Virus record (IMG/VR): IMGVR_UViG_2703718842_000003
Length of the DNA: 9,984 nt
DNA from: a virus
Taxonomy: Duplodnaviria; Heunggongvirae; Uroviricota; Caudoviricetes
Direction: 5' to 3' (one strand)
The position numbers were made by a program, and so were the translations under genes. Positions 1,174 to 9,984 of the stretch are shown piece after piece; the stretch's first letter is position 1, and each line of letters opens with the position of its first letter. Below the pieces are notes generated by a model, which was not told the origin of the DNA, made no database searches, and saw only the letters and a program-made list of their open reading frames with translations.

Positions 1174-3933
1174 TTATTCTTCTGGCTGGCTGCTTTCCTC
1201 ATCCATGAAGTTGAGCACATAAACGCGAATTTGCCGCCCTCCTTCCCTTACCCGCCCCTGATAACCTCGCCCGCTCGTTGGTGGTGTTAGCATTCCTGCA
1301 TTCTTGAGAACTTCGGCAAACTGCCTGACATTAAAACCCCGTGCGATCTCCTGCTCAAATGTTGCCGGGAAGGTGTAGAAAATTATCGGGTCGCCGTCGT
1401 GGTTCCCCTTCTTCCTGTACCCGGCTAAATCACGGATGGGTAAATCGCGCGGGTCATAACCCAGCGGCGCGAATCTACTCAGCCCATAGGCATTTAAAAA
1501 CGCCTCCGTCTGCTCGATGATCTGCTGGTGCTCTTTGTTCCCCGTGCCGAACTCTTTCAGCCATGCGTTATAGGTGTGCTGTATCGCATCCCGGCACGTT
1601 TGAGCATCCCAGCCAGTAACCACGCCACCCAGCAGTAAAGCGGCCTCCAGAATGGCGAACCTCGCCCCTACACGGTGAACCTGTTCCCCATAGTCAGCAG
1701 GGATTAGACTTCGCCATCGGGCTTCACACTCACGAACGGCATCAATCGCCTGCTGCTGGTGGTCTGAAAGCCATCTAATCCACTCCCGCCCGGCAGCGCC
1801 ATGATGGTGCTGGTAAGCGTCTTTCAGCGCGTCGGCGTGATCTTTCCCTGTCTGGTGCTCATGAAAGCGCACCGCCTTACTCAGCGGGATATTCAGCAGT
1901 CGCACCAGTTGCCCCGCTTTTGTCTTGCGTCCTGCGGTGGCGATGAACGTTTCTAAATCCATTTCCCCGGTGCTGATTGCCACGGTGCGCCAGCGTTTCA
2001 GATCCCGGTTGCTTCCTTCCTTTGCTCCCTGCAATTTCCCCACGCCGTTAAACAGGGCATAGGCAGACTGAGAAACGCTTATCGGGTCTGCGCCCTGTCC
2101 GACTTCATCCAGCGGCATCAGCCCGTCATTGTGGGCGGCGGCCTCGTTTATCAGCCCCAGCGCCGTCCCATACCACGTCAGGCGCAAGGCATCAGGGTTG
2201 CCGTAAAGACTGCTCGCCACGTTCTGCGTGGTTGTTTTCCCGGCGCTCGATTGCTCATAAAAATGAATCCCGAATCCGTCACGATCTGCCACCCCGATTA
2301 ATGGCGCTGCCAGTGCTGCGGCGATGCCTGTCATCATCGCGTAGTTGCCGTATGCCAGCCGCGCAACACTGTTAAGCCAGCTTTCAGGCGTTCCTGCTAC
2401 GGTATACCCGGCAGCGGCTGAACTGCGCCCGCTGAACAAAACAGGCCGCTGAGGTGTGCCGATGATTTCCCCGTCCGGCATGATGTATGCCCCACACTGC
2501 CAGCCTGTAGCATGAGCAACGCGCCACAATTCACGCGAGCCGCTTCGCTGTAACCAGTCGGCAAGAATCGCCCGTAGGCTGTTTTTCGTTGTGACGTTGA
2601 CGCCACCAGCTTTCAGGGTGCGCCAGCCTTCACGCTCGCCAATATCAGCCAGCGGGATAGCCGCTGTTGTCGGTATGCCTGCACCAAATGCCAGCCATGA
2701 GATAATAAGATACTGATCTTTGTCGTCGCGTCCCGTGCCGATAACCTCCAACGGTGAACATAACCAGCTTTCAGCGTTGATGATCTCCCCGCTTTCCTTG
2801 TCCACCTTCGGCGTTACCCAGAAAACGCCATCTTTTCGGCTCTCAATGTGGGGTTTTAGTGGGTCTTTCTCTGGATGGTCAGTTTTACCGCCCTCAATGG
2901 CTTGCAATCGCGGTTTCACGGCTTCCCCTTGAATCTGGTACATCGAATCGTTAAACGCAGCCGTAGCGACTTCCAGCCCGTTTTGCTGGCGGTAGTCGTC
3001 CCAGTCGGCTTTGTAGTCTGTCGGCGGCAGCGCCACCCAGCCAGCCACGGATAAGGCGGCTTTCTCTGCGGCATCTTTGCCCGTGTTCGCCTGGTCGTCC
3101 TGCTGGTGGTCGTTATCTGCGGCAATGATAATCTGCGTGGCTGGATATATCCGGCGCATCACTTCGGCAACGGGTAGCAGGTTGCCCGCGTCAATTGCTG
3201 CCACTGCCAGCGCGTCCGGGCGCATCAGGTGAACTGAAAGGGCCGTCGCCAGCCCCTCGGCAATTAAAACGCTCTGCGGCGATTCTGGCGCGTTTACGGC
3301 GTGATATGCCCCGCGCTTTGCTGAACCTGTCAGGAGTCGTTTATCTCCCTGCGGCGTGATGGTCTGCGCCGCCACTACTGCGCCGGATTCATCCACCAGC
3401 GGCAGGAGTAGCGAACCATCAGACATAACCGGGTAATTAAACCCGGTCAGCCCTTTTGATTGCAGGTAATCAGATTCGCCCTGTGTGACACTCTGGCGCA
3501 TTCCGGCATACAGACGGGCAAACGTAGCCCTTCGCTGCTCTGCGTCCTCTGCTGCCTGTTTCTGGCGCTCCTGCTCACGCTGCTGGCGGTCAGCTTCCAG
3601 TTGCTCTCTTCTATGGCTCGCTGCCACCGGGTCGGTTTGCGCTGCCCGGTAATCAATACCCAGCACGTCAGCGGCAAGCTGTGCCGCCTCCGTAGTGCCG
3701 CAGTTGTTAACCCGCTTGATTAAATCCAGCCCGTCACCAGCGCCACACTGGTTGCAGATAAAGCTACCGCGCCCGTTGTCGTCGAATCTGAAACGGTCTT
3801 TTCCTCCACATGCAGGGCACGGAGAATGGCGGCGCGATGAATCAGGCACGTCGATAGACAGGCCAGCCAGCACATAAGGCCAGTTACCAGCGGCGGCGGT
3901 GGTCACTTCGCGGATAAGGTCGATATTACGCAT
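1174..3933 (-). CDS. Primase-helicase, P4 alpha / pri-rep type (919 aa)
   Basis: ATG at 3933 with GGGAGG 9 nt upstream. N-terminal Zn-ribbon CPAC...CNQC (residues 39-63), TOPRIM-like AEGLATA and IIAADNDHQ acidic motif, C-terminal P-loop-like SSAGKTT consistent with a D5/SF3-type helicase. Family call from motif recollection. Confidence 0.9.
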   Translation of the reverse strand: MRNIDLIREVTTAAAGNWPYVLAGLSIDVPDSSRRHSPCPACGGKDRFRFDDNGRGSFICNQCGAGDGLDLIKRVNNCGTTEAAQLAADVLGIDYRAAQTDPVAASHRREQLEADRQQREQERQKQAAEDAEQRRATFARLYAGMRQSVTQGESDYLQSKGLTGFNYPVMSDGSLLLPLVDESGAVVAAQTITPQGDKRLLTGSAKRGAYHAVNAPESPQSVLIAEGLATALSVHLMRPDALAVAAIDAGNLLPVAEVMRRIYPATQIIIAADNDHQQDDQANTGKDAAEKAALSVAGWVALPPTDYKADWDDYRQQNGLEVATAAFNDSMYQIQGEAVKPRLQAIEGGKTDHPEKDPLKPHIESRKDGVFWVTPKVDKESGEIINAESWLCSPLEVIGTGRDDKDQYLIISWLAFGAGIPTTAAIPLADIGEREGWRTLKAGGVNVTTKNSLRAILADWLQRSGSRELWRVAHATGWQCGAYIMPDGEIIGTPQRPVLFSGRSSAAAGYTVAGTPESWLNSVARLAYGNYAMMTGIAAALAAPLIGVADRDGFGIHFYEQSSAGKTTTQNVASSLYGNPDALRLTWYGTALGLINEAAAHNDGLMPLDEVGQGADPISVSQSAYALFNGVGKLQGAKEGSNRDLKRWRTVAISTGEMDLETFIATAGRKTKAGQLVRLLNIPLSKAVRFHEHQTGKDHADALKDAYQHHHGAAGREWIRWLSDHQQQAIDAVRECEARWRSLIPADYGEQVHRVGARFAILEAALLLGGVVTGWDAQTCRDAIQHTYNAWLKEFGTGNKEHQQIIEQTEAFLNAYGLSRFAPLGYDPRDLPIRDLAGYRKKGNHDGDPIIFYTFPATFEQEIARGFNVRQFAEVLKNAGMLTPPTSGRGYQGRVREGGRQIRVYVLNFMDEESSQPEE

Positions 3934-3947
3934 TCGTGTTACCTCCC

Positions 3948-4574
3948 TCAGTGCGCCGCTGGCATTTCAGGCCAGCCGTTTTCATCCAGATCAGCAATGA
4001 AGTGATCGTGTAGCTCTGCCAGCGTTTCACGTCCGAACGGGGTCAGCTCGCCGCGCTCCGTATCCAGCATGGACTGATAAAACACAATGGCTTTTTCCGT
4101 ACCCTGTTCGACGCCGTATCGCTCAATCATTGCGCCCTCGATGTTGTTCGCCATCGCCAGGCGTTCAGCAAACGGGTAAACCACAATGCCCGCTGTGCCA
4201 TTGGAGTAAATCGCCACCTGCGATGATGTGCCGTCAGACTCAGTAACCGTGGTGGTGCCGTTCTCGCGCTTCATCTCAGAAATGAACGTCGCAGCAATCA
4301 GCCAGCGCCACATAGTGACGTTATGCTGCGCGGTGAAGTCGAACCAGCCACGCGCCCCGCCATCAGCAACGGCAAAATGAATGGCGTATCCGATATCTGG
4401 CTTATCGTCGTACTCTCCGGCGTCAAGGCCGTTCACGGCGCTCTCGTAGCTGATAAGAGCAACCTGCTCATATCCCCCGGCATCATTGCGGGTCATGATA
4501 TTGACGCCGTGCGGTGTGGCTTCGGCGTGTAATAAGTCGGCATTTCCCGATTTAATGGTCGGTGCGTTGCTCAT
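3948..4574 (-). CDS. Hypothetical protein (208 aa), first gene upstream of primase
   Basis: ATG at 4574 with GGAGGG 6 nt upstream; TGA stop at 3948 sits inside the primase RBS region; no motif I can assign. Confidence 0.6.
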   Translation of the reverse strand: MSNAPTIKSGNADLLHAEATPHGVNIMTRNDAGGYEQVALISYESAVNGLDAGEYDDKPDIGYAIHFAVADGGARGWFDFTAQHNVTMWRWLIAATFISEMKRENGTTTVTESDGTSSQVAIYSNGTAGIVVYPFAERLAMANNIEGAMIERYGVEQGTEKAIVFYQSMLDTERGELTPFGRETLAELHDHFIADLDENGWPEMPAAH

Positions 4575-6921: not shown

Positions 6922-7356
6922 TTAGGCGGCGGTGAGATTGTCCGGGTATAGATTGAGAATGTCGGCAATTTCAGGCTGAGAAAGTCCCTGATAGCCCCCA
7001 GCGTCGGCGTTATGGTTCACAAGCCGAATAACTTTTAGAACGTCACCGCGCCCGGTAAAGCGATAGCGTAAATGTGACCCGATCCCGTCGGGATTCTTTT
7101 CGTCGATACGCTCTAACTGAATATCAAGCCTGCGTTCTAACTCGCTGGCGTAGTTCCTTCCAGACGAAAGGCGGCAGTAGCGCAGAATGTCGTTTTCTGT
7201 CCATCCCTCTACCCCAGTGCGTAGCATATAGACGCGGGCGCGGTGCTTCTTCGGTGTGCGGCGTGGCGCTTGTGTGGTGGGCGCTGGTGGCGTAACATCA
7301 GATCCGCGAATATCTATGTTAGCCGCCTGCTGTCCGGGGCGGTTTTCTTTTTTCAT
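6922..7356 (-). CDS. Hypothetical protein (144 aa) with a basic, proline-rich N-terminus
   Basis: Start ATG shares one nucleotide with the alpA stop (TGATG, plus-strand catca at 7354..7358), so it is translationally coupled to alpA; no motif assigned. Confidence 0.6.
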   Translation of the reverse strand: MKKENRPGQQAANIDIRGSDVTPPAPTTQAPRRTPKKHRARVYMLRTGVEGWTENDILRYCRLSSGRNYASELERRLDIQLERIDEKNPDGIGSHLRYRFTGRGDVLKVIRLVNHNADAGGYQGLSQPEIADILNLYPDNLTAA

Positions 7357-7574
7357 CAGGCCACCTTCCCGCGACGCTCTGCCAGCCAGTTGTTAATCTC
7401 TACCGCATCAAAGGCGGTAATCTTCTCGCCCAGCTTTACCGGGCGCGGCAGAACCCCATTGCGAACTTTGCGATCAATGGTGGAAACGCTAACGCCCAGC
7501 AATTCAGCAAGGCGGAAGCGTCGGATATAGCCAGATTGGGGGATTGTGTGGGTTGTTGCGTTATGTGTTGCCAT
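7356..7574 (-). CDS. alpA: AlpA / excisionase-family HTH regulator (72 aa)
   Basis: ATG at 7574; core RLAELLGVSVSTIDRKVRNGVLPRPVKLGEKITAFDAVEINNWL follows the AlpA/Xis-type winged-HTH pattern (HTH, then G.FP.P.klG, then a conserved W). Confidence 0.8.
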   Translation of the reverse strand: MATHNATTHTIPQSGYIRRFRLAELLGVSVSTIDRKVRNGVLPRPVKLGEKITAFDAVEINNWLAERRGKVA

Positions 7575-7685
7575 ATGTCCCGTAACCTCTTTTGATGGTT
7601 GTTGCTTCGTTACGGGTATGATGGGAGCAATAGATTGTAATGTATCGGAATTATTAGAAAACTCCCCGGAATTTTCATAATTCCG
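7575..7685 (-). promoter_or_regulatory. alpA leader/operator region with inverted and direct repeats
   Basis: Inverted repeat CCCGTAAC (7579..7586) / GTTACGGG (7609..7616) bracketing the alpA SD (cctc 7586..7589). CGGAATT direct repeats at 7646 and 7667 (21 bp apart) plus inverted copy ATAATTCCG at 7677..7685. Minus-strand TACAAT (-10-like) at 7639..7634. Confidence 0.4.
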
Positions 7686-8609
7686 TTATCGGTTGACTCC
7701 CCCTTTTCGCAGCCAATCTATAAGCGTCTTATCATCATCCGGGAGTGGTAGCTCCTCACCTTTATTGTTAGCTTTATTTCTCAGTTGTGTAATGCTGCCT
7801 TTTAAATCACTATCGGTTAAGCCTATACGTTTAAGTAATGCGACAATTAGTCTCATCTGTTTTTCTGTTGTTTTTACTGGTTTTCCTACATTCATTTCCG
7901 TCGGCGGTAAGGGAATAACACCTCCGTTAATCATGCTTTTAATCGGCTCGCCTGTGTCTATTGCGTCTTTGAGTTTTAAAATGGTATCTCTGGCAATAAA
8001 TAGATCGGAAGTTGTCAAAGTCTCATTAAGCGCAGGTTTTCGGCTCTCACTTAACTGAAACCCTATGCTTTCGGTTAGTTGTCTGTTTAGCGTAGGTAGC
8101 CAGCTCTGATTAAAATATCTATCGCTAATTATCTGACACGAAAGGCCAGTCTTCTCGCGGAAAGTGTCCCATCCGAACGGCCTGAAAATTGTCGTGTCTA
8201 TCACCCTTGCCCTCTTAGAATAAAGAAGACTTTCTATTTCACTGTGTCCCAGACACCATAGCCCGTTCGCCAATCCTCTAAATAAAATAAGCCCACTATC
8301 TGTTTTGTATGCGTCATGTTCGGTGAGCGTGGAATTAAAATGAGATATATAGTTGCCCTCACGAAAAAGAAATGATGAGTTTCCTTTGTGTTCGTGATAA
8401 AACTCAATTGGGTCTTTTATATCTTTACCGCCTATAAAAGCCAAAGTAGAAGAAAATCCTCTCATCATTATACACAACGGTATAGCCCCAATAACTCCAT
8501 AGTGAAGTAAATCATCTGTATCGCATTGCAAAATACTAGCTGCCCTGTCGAGCTTAAAGTATTCCATAGGTGGGATTTTAATACTGCTGTGGGCTTCTTT
8601 TTTGGTCAT
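7686..8609 (-). CDS. Orphan hypothetical protein (about 307 aa from ATG 8609; 312 aa if GTG 8624), AT-rich cargo-like gene between int and alpA
   Basis: Long ORF with AGGTG 5 nt upstream of ATG 8609; sampled 60-nt lines are roughly 35-40% GC versus roughly 55-70% in int and primase (hand counts); no family motif recognised. Confidence 0.7.
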   Translation of the reverse strand: MTKKEAHSSIKIPPMEYFKLDRAASILQCDTDDLLHYGVIGAIPLCIMMRGFSSTLAFIGGKDIKDPIEFYHEHKGNSSFLFREGNYISHFNSTLTEHDAYKTDSGLILFRGLANGLWCLGHSEIESLLYSKRARVIDTTIFRPFGWDTFREKTGLSCQIISDRYFNQSWLPTLNRQLTESIGFQLSESRKPALNETLTTSDLFIARDTILKLKDAIDTGEPIKSMINGGVIPLPPTEMNVGKPVKTTEKQMRLIVALLKRIGLTDSDLKGSITQLRNKANNKGEELPLPDDDKTLIDWLRKGGVNR

Positions 8610-8641
8610 CGCGTCACCTTTCACGCTGTGCCTTAAAGAGT

Positions 8642-8697
8642 GATTGAGCCAGGCGGTAAGGCTTCCCGCTTTTCGCCCCGTCGGGCTAGGCTCAATC
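8642..8697 (-). other. Compound hairpin in the int / cargo-gene intergenic region
   Basis: 9-bp inverted repeat GATTGAGCC (8642..8650) / GGCTCAATC (8689..8697) enclosing a GC-rich inner palindrome (GCCCCGTCGGGC, CCCG..CGGG); no clear U-tract on the minus-strand transcript. Confidence 0.35.
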
Positions 8698-8724
8698 TGT
8701 CCTCTGATTCTTTACATATCTTGG

Positions 8725-9984
8725 TTACTTCGCCTTTCTCAGCGGTGTAACGTTGTACTCTTCGCCGCGCTCCAGTGCCACCAGCAATCCCGCCCACTGT
8801 GTTAACGCGGCCCGGCGTTCATCAAAGTATTGGTGGCGGTTATAGATACCCTCCACGCCTTTAATTTTGTGGTTAAGGCATCTTTCTGCGACTACAGGAT
8901 CAACGCCCAGCGCGGCTAAATGGGTGCGGGCCGTGCGCCGGAAGTCGTGAATAGTGAAATTCGGCACGTCCGGCATTTCAGCGCGAACCTTCGCCAGCGC
9001 AACGGGCAGGGTGCTTTCCTGAATATGGGGGATCATGCGGTTTTGCATCTTTCTGGCTGGCAGTACCCATGCGCTGTTGCATGAGAACGTTTTAAGCTCT
9101 CTCAGCCATTCGACTGCTGGCGGTGCTAATGGAATGTCTATAGCGTCGCCGTTTTTGCTGCGTTCCTCTGGCAAGCGCCATACGGCTTTATCAAGATCGA
9201 ACTCCTCCCAGCGGGCGGCGCATAACTCCATTTTGCGGACGCATAACGCTAACAGTAATTTGAACGTGATTTCATTCTGGCGACTGAAACCCTTAGCCGT
9301 GCGCATGGCTTTGAATAGCTGGATTAACTCATCGCGTGTTAGCCAGCGGTCGCGGCTAACCTCCTTCCCTCCAGCGTCTGCCACCTCAAAGGCTGAACAG
9401 GGGTTAATCTCCAGCGCGTGCCGTTTGATTCCGTAGTCGAATATGCGGCGCGTCCATCTCAGCACGTCCGTTGCTATGGTCGGCGCTCCACGGTCAACAA
9501 TACCTTTCAGCATGTCGTCGATATGGCGCGGCTTCACGTCCTCTACCTTCATGCTGCCAATGCAGGGGTTTATATCTTTGTCGATACGGCGGCGGAGTAT
9601 ATCGGGGTGCTTCCAGCGGGGCAGTATCTGACGTTCAAAGTATTCAGCGGCAAGCTCTGAAACGCGCATGGCGTTTTTTTCTGCTTCCATCTTCGCTAGT
9701 GCTTCGGATTTCCGCTCCTGCTTCTCCCCGGCAACGTCATAACCCAGCGCAACACGCGCCGAAAGCTCCTTTGCTGTCTCTCTGGCCTTTGATAGTGATA
9801 GCTCGCTATACGAACCAATTAGCATTGCGCGGGACTTCCCTGCGAGTTTATAGCGGAATCTCCATGTGGGGGTTTTGTCGGCTTCACGGTAACGCAGGTA
9901 TAAGCCGTTCCCGTCCGCCCGTCCCTCGAATCGCTCTCCGGCCTTTATCCACGCGCGGATCTGCATGTCTGTGAGTTTTGGCAT
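8725..9984 (-). CDS. int: Tyrosine site-specific integrase, P4-type (419 aa)
   Basis: ATG at 9984 (window edge, upstream signals not visible); catalytic-region motifs HDFRRTARTHLA (HxxR) and GIYNRHQY (tyrosine nucleophile context); N-terminal arm-binding-type domain typical of P4-family integrases. Confidence 0.9.
   Translation of the reverse strand: MPKLTDMQIRAWIKAGERFEGRADGNGLYLRYREADKTPTWRFRYKLAGKSRAMLIGSYSELSLSKARETAKELSARVALGYDVAGEKQERKSEALAKMEAEKNAMRVSELAAEYFERQILPRWKHPDILRRRIDKDINPCIGSMKVEDVKPRHIDDMLKGIVDRGAPTIATDVLRWTRRIFDYGIKRHALEINPCSAFEVADAGGKEVSRDRWLTRDELIQLFKAMRTAKGFSRQNEITFKLLLALCVRKMELCAARWEEFDLDKAVWRLPEERSKNGDAIDIPLAPPAVEWLRELKTFSCNSAWVLPARKMQNRMIPHIQESTLPVALAKVRAEMPDVPNFTIHDFRRTARTHLAALGVDPVVAERCLNHKIKGVEGIYNRHQYFDERRAALTQWAGLLVALERGEEYNVTPLRKAK

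Follow-up and report, generated by a model that had tools for sequence, protein, structure and literature searches.

This study concerns a 9,984-nucleotide stretch of DNA from a virus of the class Caudoviricetes (IMG/VR record IMGVR_UViG_2703718842_000003), referred to throughout as the window, and in particular the spacer that separates the gene alpA from the gene upstream of it, orf312. The window is part of a ~13-kb chromosomal island of Escherichia coli that lies between yicC and dinD, and every island gene that it contains is encoded on the minus strand. Two elements occupy the orf312-alpA spacer (Table 1): a hairpin in the translation-initiation region of the alpA messenger RNA (mRNA), and a cluster of CGGAATT repeats that begins at the orf312 stop codon. 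The hairpin is a covarying RNA structure maintained by selection among related islands, and the repeats follow a spacing rule that is shared between lineages whose repeat sequences differ.

Table 1. Coordinates of the genes and sequence elements around the orf312-alpA spacer; promoter elements are predictions.
Feature	Position in the window	Strand	Remarks
Integrase gene (int)	8725-9984	minus	
Upstream gene (orf312)	7686..8624	minus	312 aa as an open reading frame; RefSeq start at 8609 gives 307 aa
Half-site h1, CGGAATTAT	7677..7685	minus	Inverted copy beside the stop codon
Half-site h2, AAAATTCCG	7667..7675	minus	Exact CGGAATT at 7667
Half-site h3, GGGAGTTTT	7658..7666	minus	Degenerate; its homologue in other tail-A loci is GGAG(A)TTTT
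Half-site h4, AATAATTCCG	7646..7655	minus	Exact CGGAATT at 7646; AACTCCG in some relatives
-35-like hexamer GATACA	7646..7641	minus	Predicted; weak, 3/6 matches; 17 bp upstream of CATCAT
Alternative -10 hexamer TACAAT	7639..7634	minus	5/6 matches; predicted start ~7627
-10-like hexamer CATCAT	7623..7618	minus	Predicted; 1 nt upstream of the stem
Hairpin 5' arm, CCCGUAAC on the mRNA	7616..7609	minus	
Hairpin loop, GAAGCAACAACCAUCAAAAGAG	7608..7587	minus	22 nt, CA-rich; holds the Shine-Dalgarno sequence
Shine-Dalgarno sequence GAGG	7589..7586	minus	11 nt ahead of the AUG; read from the sequence
Hairpin 3' arm, GUUACGGG on the mRNA	7586..7579	minus	
alpA ATG	7574..7572	minus	
alpA	7356..7574	minus	72 aa, from the list of open reading frames; Phage_AlpA / HTH_17 (Pfam PF05930, E = 5.6e-8)
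144-aa open reading frame	6922..7356	minus	ATG shares 1 nt with the alpA stop (TGATG, 7354-7358)

A conserved hairpin in the alpA translation-initiation region

The original prediction, made from the letters of the window, described an inverted repeat in the alpA leader, CCCGTAAC at 7579-7586 and GTTACGGG at 7609-7616, which would form an 8-bp stem, and both arms are found at exactly these positions. The 8-mer of the stem occurs twice in the window, both times here, against an expectation of 0.23. The 3' arm was also said to overlap the GAGG Shine-Dalgarno (SD) sequence. The two do have one base in common (G7586), but the SD otherwise lies in the loop, and the arm, which spans positions -12 to -5 relative to the AUG and is separated from it by the four nucleotides ACAU, occupies the SD-AUG spacer instead of masking the SD.

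Folding of the leader, which had been proposed as a check of the prediction, recovers the hairpin. The 53-nt leader that starts at 7627 adopts it in 83% of the ensemble (-11.8 kcal/mol, z = -3.27), none of 200 shuffled versions folds as well as the native sequence, and the identical stem is obtained when a 141-nt context is folded. The cost of opening the region from the SD to the AUG is 12-15 kcal/mol with the full leader and ~8 kcal/mol with a start at 7611-7613, where most of the 5' arm is missing; a leader truncated by a start inside the 5' arm shows no significant fold (-3.3 kcal/mol, z = -1.1). A role of the stem as an intrinsic terminator is ruled out, since it is followed by ACAUAUG instead of a U-tract and a scan of positions 7300-8800 finds no minus-strand terminator. 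An antiterminator arrangement of the kind proposed for the Pseudomonas aeruginosa AlpA was likewise set aside, the alpA leader having no terminator here. No Rfam 15 family matches positions 7300-8000 on either strand with an E value better than 3.5.

Comparison with other islands shows that the stem is under selection. About 160 loci carrying relatives of this AlpA were gathered from GTDB genomes, metagenomes and IMG/VR, and the stem could be located between the SD and the AUG in ~150 related loci; a purine-rich SD stands at the equivalent position in all aligned leaders. The allelic, L001-type islands of 113 complete E. coli genomes, which carry a different gene upstream of alpA, are conserved with respect to this part of the window only at 7578-7619 (~90% identity), and their similarity begins exactly at the 5' arm of the hairpin. 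Covariation over a 9-pair stem was counted in 36 distinct leaders belonging to one loop-length class, for which a plain MAFFT alignment was used; a MAFFT alignment of all 78 leaders misaligned the 5' arms across loop-length classes, and a covariance model was used for the remainder. In the 36 leaders, 95.0% of stem cells are paired, a share that falls to 28-47% if the partners are shifted by 1-3 columns, two-sided changes affect five of the nine pairs (22 cells), and the observed covariation score is reached by none of 500 shuffles. The covariance model built from these leaders finds exactly one sense-strand match per locus, always against the alpA start codon.

Several features point to the mRNA. 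The 45 arm haplotypes contain 322 Watson-Crick cells, 16 G.U cells and 6 A.C cells, and this excess of G.U over A.C favours the mRNA strand. Compensatory arms (CTCGTAAC/GTTACGAG, CCCATAAC/GTTATGGG, CCCCTAAC/GTTAGGGG and CCCGTTAC/GTAACGGG) occur among loci whose AlpA helix-turn-helix is identical, and loop length varies from 13 to 23 nt; both argue against a protein site in duplex DNA. The stem is thus a selected RNA structure of the alpA translation-initiation region.

The same arrangement recurs beyond the closest relatives. The helix of a sister subfamily reaches further inward, to GTAACTTC/GGAGTTAC, and pairs the whole SD. A second and larger AlpA lineage (..LIRLPEVQRRTGYSKAWIYRL..), represented by 80 IMG/VR loci and four others (L177-L256, L170, L174-L176), has stems of unrelated or partly related sequence (for example, ATTTACCTCGTAA/TTACGAGGTAAAT, GCTCCTGTAG/CTACAGGAGC and CCCCCTGTT/AACAGGGGG; z ~ -4.5), with many compensatory variants and a 3' arm that takes in the SD and runs up to the AUG. 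Occluding the ribosome-binding region of alpA is thus a recurrent design and appears to be general for alpA in Enterobacterales satellites. Since the SD is fully sequestered in related lineages, a limitation of alpA translation is the natural reading, and we consider it likely that the stem has some translational role. The claim that it could gate alpA translation accordingly stands in part: the structure is conserved in the initiation region and relatives sequester the entire SD, but in the window a single SD base is paired. No description of an alpA leader hairpin, or of a mapped operator at the alpA promoter (PalpA), was found in the literature searched, the coverage of which was incomplete.

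Position of the predicted alpA promoter

The upstream regions of related loci were reduced to 42 non-redundant sequences, less than 65% identical to one another. They share a weak tAnaAT pattern at -7..-2 relative to the stem, and a hexamer with A at its second and T at its sixth position ends 1 nt before the stem in 14 of the 42, compared with ~4 at other offsets. The window has CATCAT at this place. The -35-like hexamer GATACA abuts the proximal repeat of the CGGAATT cluster and corresponds in position to the ATGACA of the L002-type family, for which a promoter scan gives ATGACA-17-CATGAT, again ending 1 nt before the stem. Similarly, 30 of 42 leaders of the second AlpA lineage have a good -10 hexamer within -2..+2 of the 5' edge of the stem, whereas ~13 would be expected. 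These hexamers point to a start ~7 nt downstream of CATCAT, at ~7613-7610, that is, inside the 5' arm, where alpA transcription may begin. A start beyond the stem had been regarded in the original prediction as speaking against translational gating; a start inside the stem, here a predicted one only, may change the mechanism rather than abolish the function.

Alternatively, transcription could start upstream of the stem, for instance at ~7627 from TACAAT. The hairpin would then be present in every alpA mRNA and would damp translation, either constitutively or through a trans-acting factor, an analogue being the opening and closing of a hairpin on the mom mRNA of phage Mu by Com; as a variant of the same view, the hairpin could serve as a 5' stabiliser of the alpA mRNA. 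TACAAT matches the consensus well and is invariant in seven variants of the cassette type found in the window, the leader that it would produce is the one that folds into the hairpin in most of the ensemble, covariation reaches the outermost stem pairs, and within the lineage the loop's 5' portion is conserved beyond what pairing requires, which would suit an operator recognised by a protein. However, TACAAT has no usable -35 and falls below the thresholds of the promoter scan, hexamers like it are not general (7 of 42 regions at a distance of 17 nt from the stem, against 14 of 42 at 1 nt), and an upstream start does not account for the -10-like hexamer found tight against the 5' arm in each of two independent AlpA lineages. 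An upstream start thus seems rather unlikely, and the stem-abutting promoter is retained as the preferred reading below.

Tandem dyads between orf312 and alpA

As originally described, CGGAATT occurs in direct orientation at 7646 and 7667 of the plus strand, 21 bp apart, and an inverted copy at 7679-7685 directly abuts the TAA stop codon (7686-7688) of orf312. The 9,984 bp contain no further exact copy, and all three lie within 40 bp; it is this clustering that stands out, the count itself being unremarkable (3 against 1.7 expected). A fourth, degenerate copy, GGGAGTTTT (7666..7658), had been overlooked. The cluster consequently comprises four alternating half-sites of consensus AAyTCC (h1-h4 in Table 1), spaced ~10.5 bp apart, which amount to two dyads at a distance of 21 bp. 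Half-sites h1 and h2 make up a perfect dyad, CGGAATT-N5-AATTCCG, that is invariant in the seven cassette variants; the second dyad, GGAGTT-N7-AATTCC, is imperfect. In these variants the flanking coding sequence is conserved much less well than the stretch between the stop codon and TACAAT, and the cluster is conserved only in company with the type of upstream gene present in the window.

The two-helical-turn spacing, which had been taken as typical of a regulator binding site, turns out to be an architectural rule that is conserved while the sequences themselves are lineage-specific. Direct 8-mers spaced by 20-22 nt are present in 28 of the 42 upstream regions, 18 of them at exactly 21 nt, where shuffled sequences give ~1 per spacing and four control regions of the same loci give 0-3 events. 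A peak at this spacing, though a smaller one, is also present in the second AlpA lineage. The repeat units are usually dyads themselves, as in GGAATATTCC, GGATTT..AAATCC, GTGAG-N10-CTCAC and TTTCG-N3-CGAAA, each present twice, or in TTACGAAC..GATCGTAA accompanied by TTACGATC, and the proximal unit abuts the -35 position. In 41 of the 42 regions there is a dyad whose arms measure 8 bp or more. Mismatches within these dyads (9 G.U, 7 A.C and 29 other) display no wobble or strand bias, unlike those of the leader stem, and fit protein half-sites better than RNA stems.

It could nonetheless be that the cluster acts as RNA belonging to the upstream gene, as a 3' untranslated hairpin, a weak terminator or a translation-coupled attenuator. 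Pairing of h1 with h2 and h3 with h4, or of h2 with h3 and h1 with h4, would yield alternative folds, the one adopted limiting transcription into alpA, and the 21-nt direct repeats would be a by-product of hairpins whose arms are internally palindromic. The cluster does fold well as RNA (-16.1 kcal/mol, z = -3.3), it follows immediately upon the stop codon in every lineage and accompanies the upstream gene's 3' end, a T-run is found almost universally at -44..-40, and some lineages (L003, L055 and L019) have a textbook terminator at the equivalent place. Changes in the inner dyad of the tail-A loci (defined in the following section) are moreover of the type U.G to C-G. Yet the terminator scan finds nothing on the minus strand here, the long hairpin carries two uncompensated mismatches in L005 although the DNA dyad h1/h2 is still perfect there, and the largely non-wobble mismatches of the 41 regions have no strand bias. 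An RNA hairpin would also have no need of a half-site shared by both tandem units, as seen in the doubled GGAATATTCC, GGATTT..AAATCC and GTGAG..CTCAC elements, and arms of the TCGCnnCGAAAA family keep conserved blocks around a non-complementary middle. We regard an RNA function of the cluster as unlikely and favour binding sites in DNA.

In L002 (3087-3115) a palindrome, TCGCAACGAAAA..TTTTCGTTGCGA, abuts the -35 of the predicted alpA promoter and is also scored as a plus-strand, that is antisense, terminator; dyads of this kind may act in both directions. Integrase arm sites were set aside as an identity for the repeats, the attachment (att) site lying beyond the far end of int, ~2.3 kb away.

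The upstream gene and candidate binding partners

The gene upstream of the repeats had been considered an orphan. It proves instead to be a member of a diverged, fast-evolving family that holds this position in nearly all related islands: at nearly every locus an open reading frame of 208-338 aa ends 35-94 nt (mostly 50-90) before the stem. The homologues compared (P0001-P0057) have a common N-terminal region of ~60 aa, and many can be aligned along most of their length or the whole of it, with 25-30% identity. The 312-aa protein of the window combines an N-terminal winged helix of the MerR/Xis/AlpA type, a ferredoxin-like middle part and a swappable C-terminal tail; it does not show the MerR-family layout of winged helix, long dimerising coiled coil and effector site. 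Searches of Pfam, PHROGs, PADLOC and NCBIfam return nothing for this protein, the 144-aa protein or three allelic upstream proteins, apart from one weak match to PADLOC PDC-S31 (E = 0.002) for the upstream protein of L003, and a second, profile-based protein search adds just six distant homologues.

The family is modular. The first ~240 residues are kept within a subfamily, whereas the last ~65 come in at least three types (A, B and C) that have been swapped between subfamilies. The upstream protein of the window has a tail of type A, which is 55-61% identical between proteins with ~32-34% overall identity (27-30% by local alignment) and contains the invariant motif PDDDK..LI.WLR.GG. Tail A matches no family in the four libraries, and the C-terminal tail has no recognisable DNA-binding fold.

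The type of repeat tracks the C-terminal tail across different N-termini and across both AlpA lineages. Relatives whose body is 82% identical but whose tail is of type C have TTACGA-type repeats, and a relative with a near-identical body and tail B has AAATTTG-type repeats. Conversely, tail-A proteins with only 27-34% body identity are accompanied, in either AlpA lineage, by AAyTCC/GGAG elements like those of the window. The product of the upstream gene is the simplest candidate for the protein that binds the repeats, with a protein of the helper phage as the alternative candidate.

AlpA is ruled out as the protein that specifies the repeats, because identical DNA-binding regions stand behind several unrelated repeat types. 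The AlpA of the window and those of L001 and L003 are 91% identical, with the same helix-turn-helix and wing, while their repeats are unrelated; at least six repeat types are found with one AlpA recognition region, and the AAyTCC element occurs with two quite different AlpA lineages. The 144-aa protein, compared in L005, is conserved to a similar degree as AlpA. These observations bear directly on the idea that the repeats are AlpA's own sites for a positive autoregulation of the kind described for the island EcCICFT073. Winged-helix proteins of the Xis/Vis/AlpA type typically bind phased direct repeats, and many of the repeat units here share an AAATT/TAATT-like core. AlpA also activates PalpA in both EcCICFT073 and EcCIMP1 (PMC6092414, PMC11773190). 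Against the diversity of repeats behind one recognition region, these points leave AlpA sites very improbable.

Least credible of all is the proposal that CCCGTAAC/GTTACGGG serves not as an RNA stem but as a binding site in duplex DNA for a dimeric protein. It is a perfect 8-bp inverted repeat, and its two-sided changes could in principle reflect co-evolution with a protein, but the compensatory arms occur among loci that share the same AlpA and whose upstream proteins have nearly identical winged helices, the wobble cells are biased to the mRNA strand, the spacing of the arms is too variable for a rigid dimer, and the stem is always locked to the SD and AUG, even with the different stem sequences of the second lineage.

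The island and its flanking features

Near-identical islands are carried by 33 complete E. coli genomes, and the alpA start is the same in the RefSeq annotation of identical islands. Besides the genes of Table 1, the minus strand of the window encodes AntA/Bro-type and Ash/Icd-like proteins, a Toprim-DUF927 primase and SSB; a PerC-family gene of the island lies outside the window. Pfam matches across the island comprise the integrase, AlpA, AntA, Ash, the Toprim/DUF927 primase and SSB. Judged by its gene set and order, the island resembles the Gram-negative phage-inducible chromosomal islands (PICIs), a group of phage satellites: int, alpA and the primase gene are co-oriented, the size falls in the 10-15 kb range, and there is a dedicated chromosomal site.

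The overlap of the alpA stop codon with the start of the 144-aa open reading frame suggests that translation of the latter is coupled to that of alpA; through this overlap, any translational control of alpA would extend to the 144-aa gene.

Three further features were noted. On the plus strand, a terminator-like hairpin with a T-run at 7321-7344, antisense to the 5' end of the 144-aa open reading frame (four overlapping matches against 1.1 expected), could halt antisense transcription arriving from downstream. On the minus strand, positions 8643-8696, located between int (stop at 8725) and the start of orf312, hold a 9-bp inverted repeat, GATTGAGCC/GGCTCAATC, around two small G+C hairpins (-37.2 kcal/mol as RNA, z = -2.4); positions 8599-8698 are ~90% conserved in more than 110 E. 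coli genomes that differ in the downstream gene, and the element could be the int terminator, a promoter or leader of orf312, or the left edge of an exchangeable segment. At the far end of the island, L024 (E. coli CFS3313) has two dinD genes at 2346-4345, one chromosomal and one island-borne, which suggests insertion in or beside dinD with a replacement copy carried by the island.

A two-layer model for alpA control

We propose, as a plausible reading that still falls on the doubtful side, that alpA is controlled from the orf312-alpA spacer in two layers, one acting at the RNA and one at the DNA level. In the first layer, the stem in the SD-AUG spacer would have to melt before the 30S subunit could bind, and alpA translation would be lowered. 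The weak predicted promoter (GATACA, 17 bp, CATCAT, 1 nt, stem) is set against the 5' arm, so that transcripts starting there would lack most of this arm and could not fold. Read-through transcripts from int and orf312, both of which are co-directional with alpA, would in contrast contain both arms and stay untranslated. The hairpin would in this way insulate a hair-trigger, positively autoregulated alpA from read-through. The AlpA of Gram-negative PICIs acts as a self-activating master inducer whose transcription is turned on by the helper phage (PMC6092414, PMC11773190), and accidental AlpA expression leads to excision and runaway replication (PMC6092414). Insulation would be sensible for this very reason. 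In the second layer, the two dyads, which share one face of the helix at a distance of 21 bp and of which the proximal abuts the -35 position, would provide a site for a lineage-specific DNA-binding factor, activating or repressing, that sets the activity of the alpA promoter.

Several observations weigh against this model. With the SD in the loop, occlusion in the window is partial. The -10 signal next to the stem is weak (at most 0.6 bit per position) and is accompanied by no general -35, and TACAAT is the better -10 hexamer and would place the entire hairpin in the alpA mRNA. Islands of the L003 type keep the stem though they have a canonical terminator upstream of it, which lowers the need for insulation. 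The repeat cluster also folds well as RNA, and the inner dyad of the tail-A loci resembles a weak terminator consisting of A-tract, stem and U-tract, with U.G wobbles in the sense strand. As to the binding factor, relatives that differ in their repeats carry an identical winged helix in the upstream protein, so that this domain cannot set repeat specificity, and the association of tail and repeats, which are adjacent, may reflect plain physical linkage.

The first layer recalls the insertion sequence IS10. Davis, Simons and Kleckner reportedly showed in 1985 that fold-back inhibition protects the transposase gene of IS10/Tn10 from external promoters. As in that system, an inverted repeat would sequester the initiation region only in transcripts from outside, the gene's own promoter lying within the repeat (here by prediction), and accidental expression of the protected gene would be harmful in both cases. 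The systems differ in that the gene concerned here encodes a satellite activator or excisionase and not a transposase, that the stem of the window covers the SD-AUG spacer and neither the AUG nor the SD, and that int and orf312, genes of the island itself, would be the source of the 'outside' transcription. We advance fold-back inhibition of the IS10 type for the alpA leader only tentatively.

Among the satellites themselves, EcCICFT073 and EcCIMP1 share with the present island the gene order int ... alpA and the operon arrangement, and their alpA is an autoactivating, helper-switched master activator (PMC6092414, PMC11773190). The island described here, a putative PICI, has the gene set of that type (int, alpA, a Bro/AntA zone, primase, SSB and PerC). 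EcCICFT073 differs in its AlpA allele, in having no gene between int and alpA, in the absence of such a leader hairpin and in its repeats, and no mapped PalpA cis elements were found in the papers on these two islands (PMC6092414, PMC11773190). Right after its int stop (L169, E. coli CFT073, 9185-9250), within the 365-bp int-alpA spacer, EcCICFT073 has about six tandem repeats of 10-11 bp (GAAACAACG, GACACAACG, GAACAACAAG and others), which may be cis elements of PalpA or of the int promoter region.

In satellite P4, the AlpA homologue vis is, like alpA, the first gene of its transcript, which is helper-responsive and comes from the late promoter PLL. PLL is activated by P2 Ogr or P4 delta through a TGT-N12-ACA dyad near -55, a motif that is not present in the alpA region here. 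In the vis leader (L257, 9030-9090, minus strand), GCTACC (9088..9083) can pair with a GGTAGC that overlaps the SD GAGG, with a CCGGA/TCCGG hairpin in between; this pairing, seen in the P4 sequence only, is short and weak. The gene downstream of vis, eta, is translationally coupled to it (PMC10111431).

The second layer has the form of operators of the lambda OR1-OR2 type, to which repressor dimers bind cooperatively, with two dyads an integral number of helical turns apart beside a promoter, and, as with Stl, the master repressor of the Staphylococcus aureus pathogenicity islands (SaPIs), a fast-diverging regulator gene would stand beside the genes that it controls. In contrast to those systems, the sites for the most part precede the -35 position, an arrangement as compatible with activation as with repression, the candidate gene runs in the same direction as alpA instead of diverging from it, and the only recognisable DNA-binding domain of the candidate does not track the repeat type.

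Implications

Overall, the original prediction is confirmed and extended as an observation and partly supported as an interpretation; its proposal of a master switch of the island that senses or responds to a helper phage is best treated as a hypothesis. In its strongest form, which we consider improbable, the gene between int and alpA would be the master regulator or sensor of this large group of Gram-negative satellites, its swappable tail reading the matching dyads, its variable body sensing a particular helper, and the hairpin acting as a second lock. If this were true, induction would require both the firing of the promoter and a hairpin-free transcript, and the upstream gene would correspond in function to SaPI Stl.

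A leader hairpin and an operator-like array are familiar kinds of device, and this instance of them was found undescribed in Rfam or in the literature searched. Neither the helper-phage inducer of alpA nor an island repressor has been identified in the Gram-negative PICIs (PMC6092414). For one widespread Enterobacterales lineage, the elements described here, a covarying hairpin, a probable embedded promoter and a tandem repeat array, supply cis elements that can be mutated, and they bear on the open question of how Gram-negative satellites hold alpA off and switch it on. A hypothetical gene easily mistaken for variable cargo is, moreover, a conserved, modular winged-helix protein. If the fold-back reading is true, an insulation trick of insertion sequences would extend to phage satellites.

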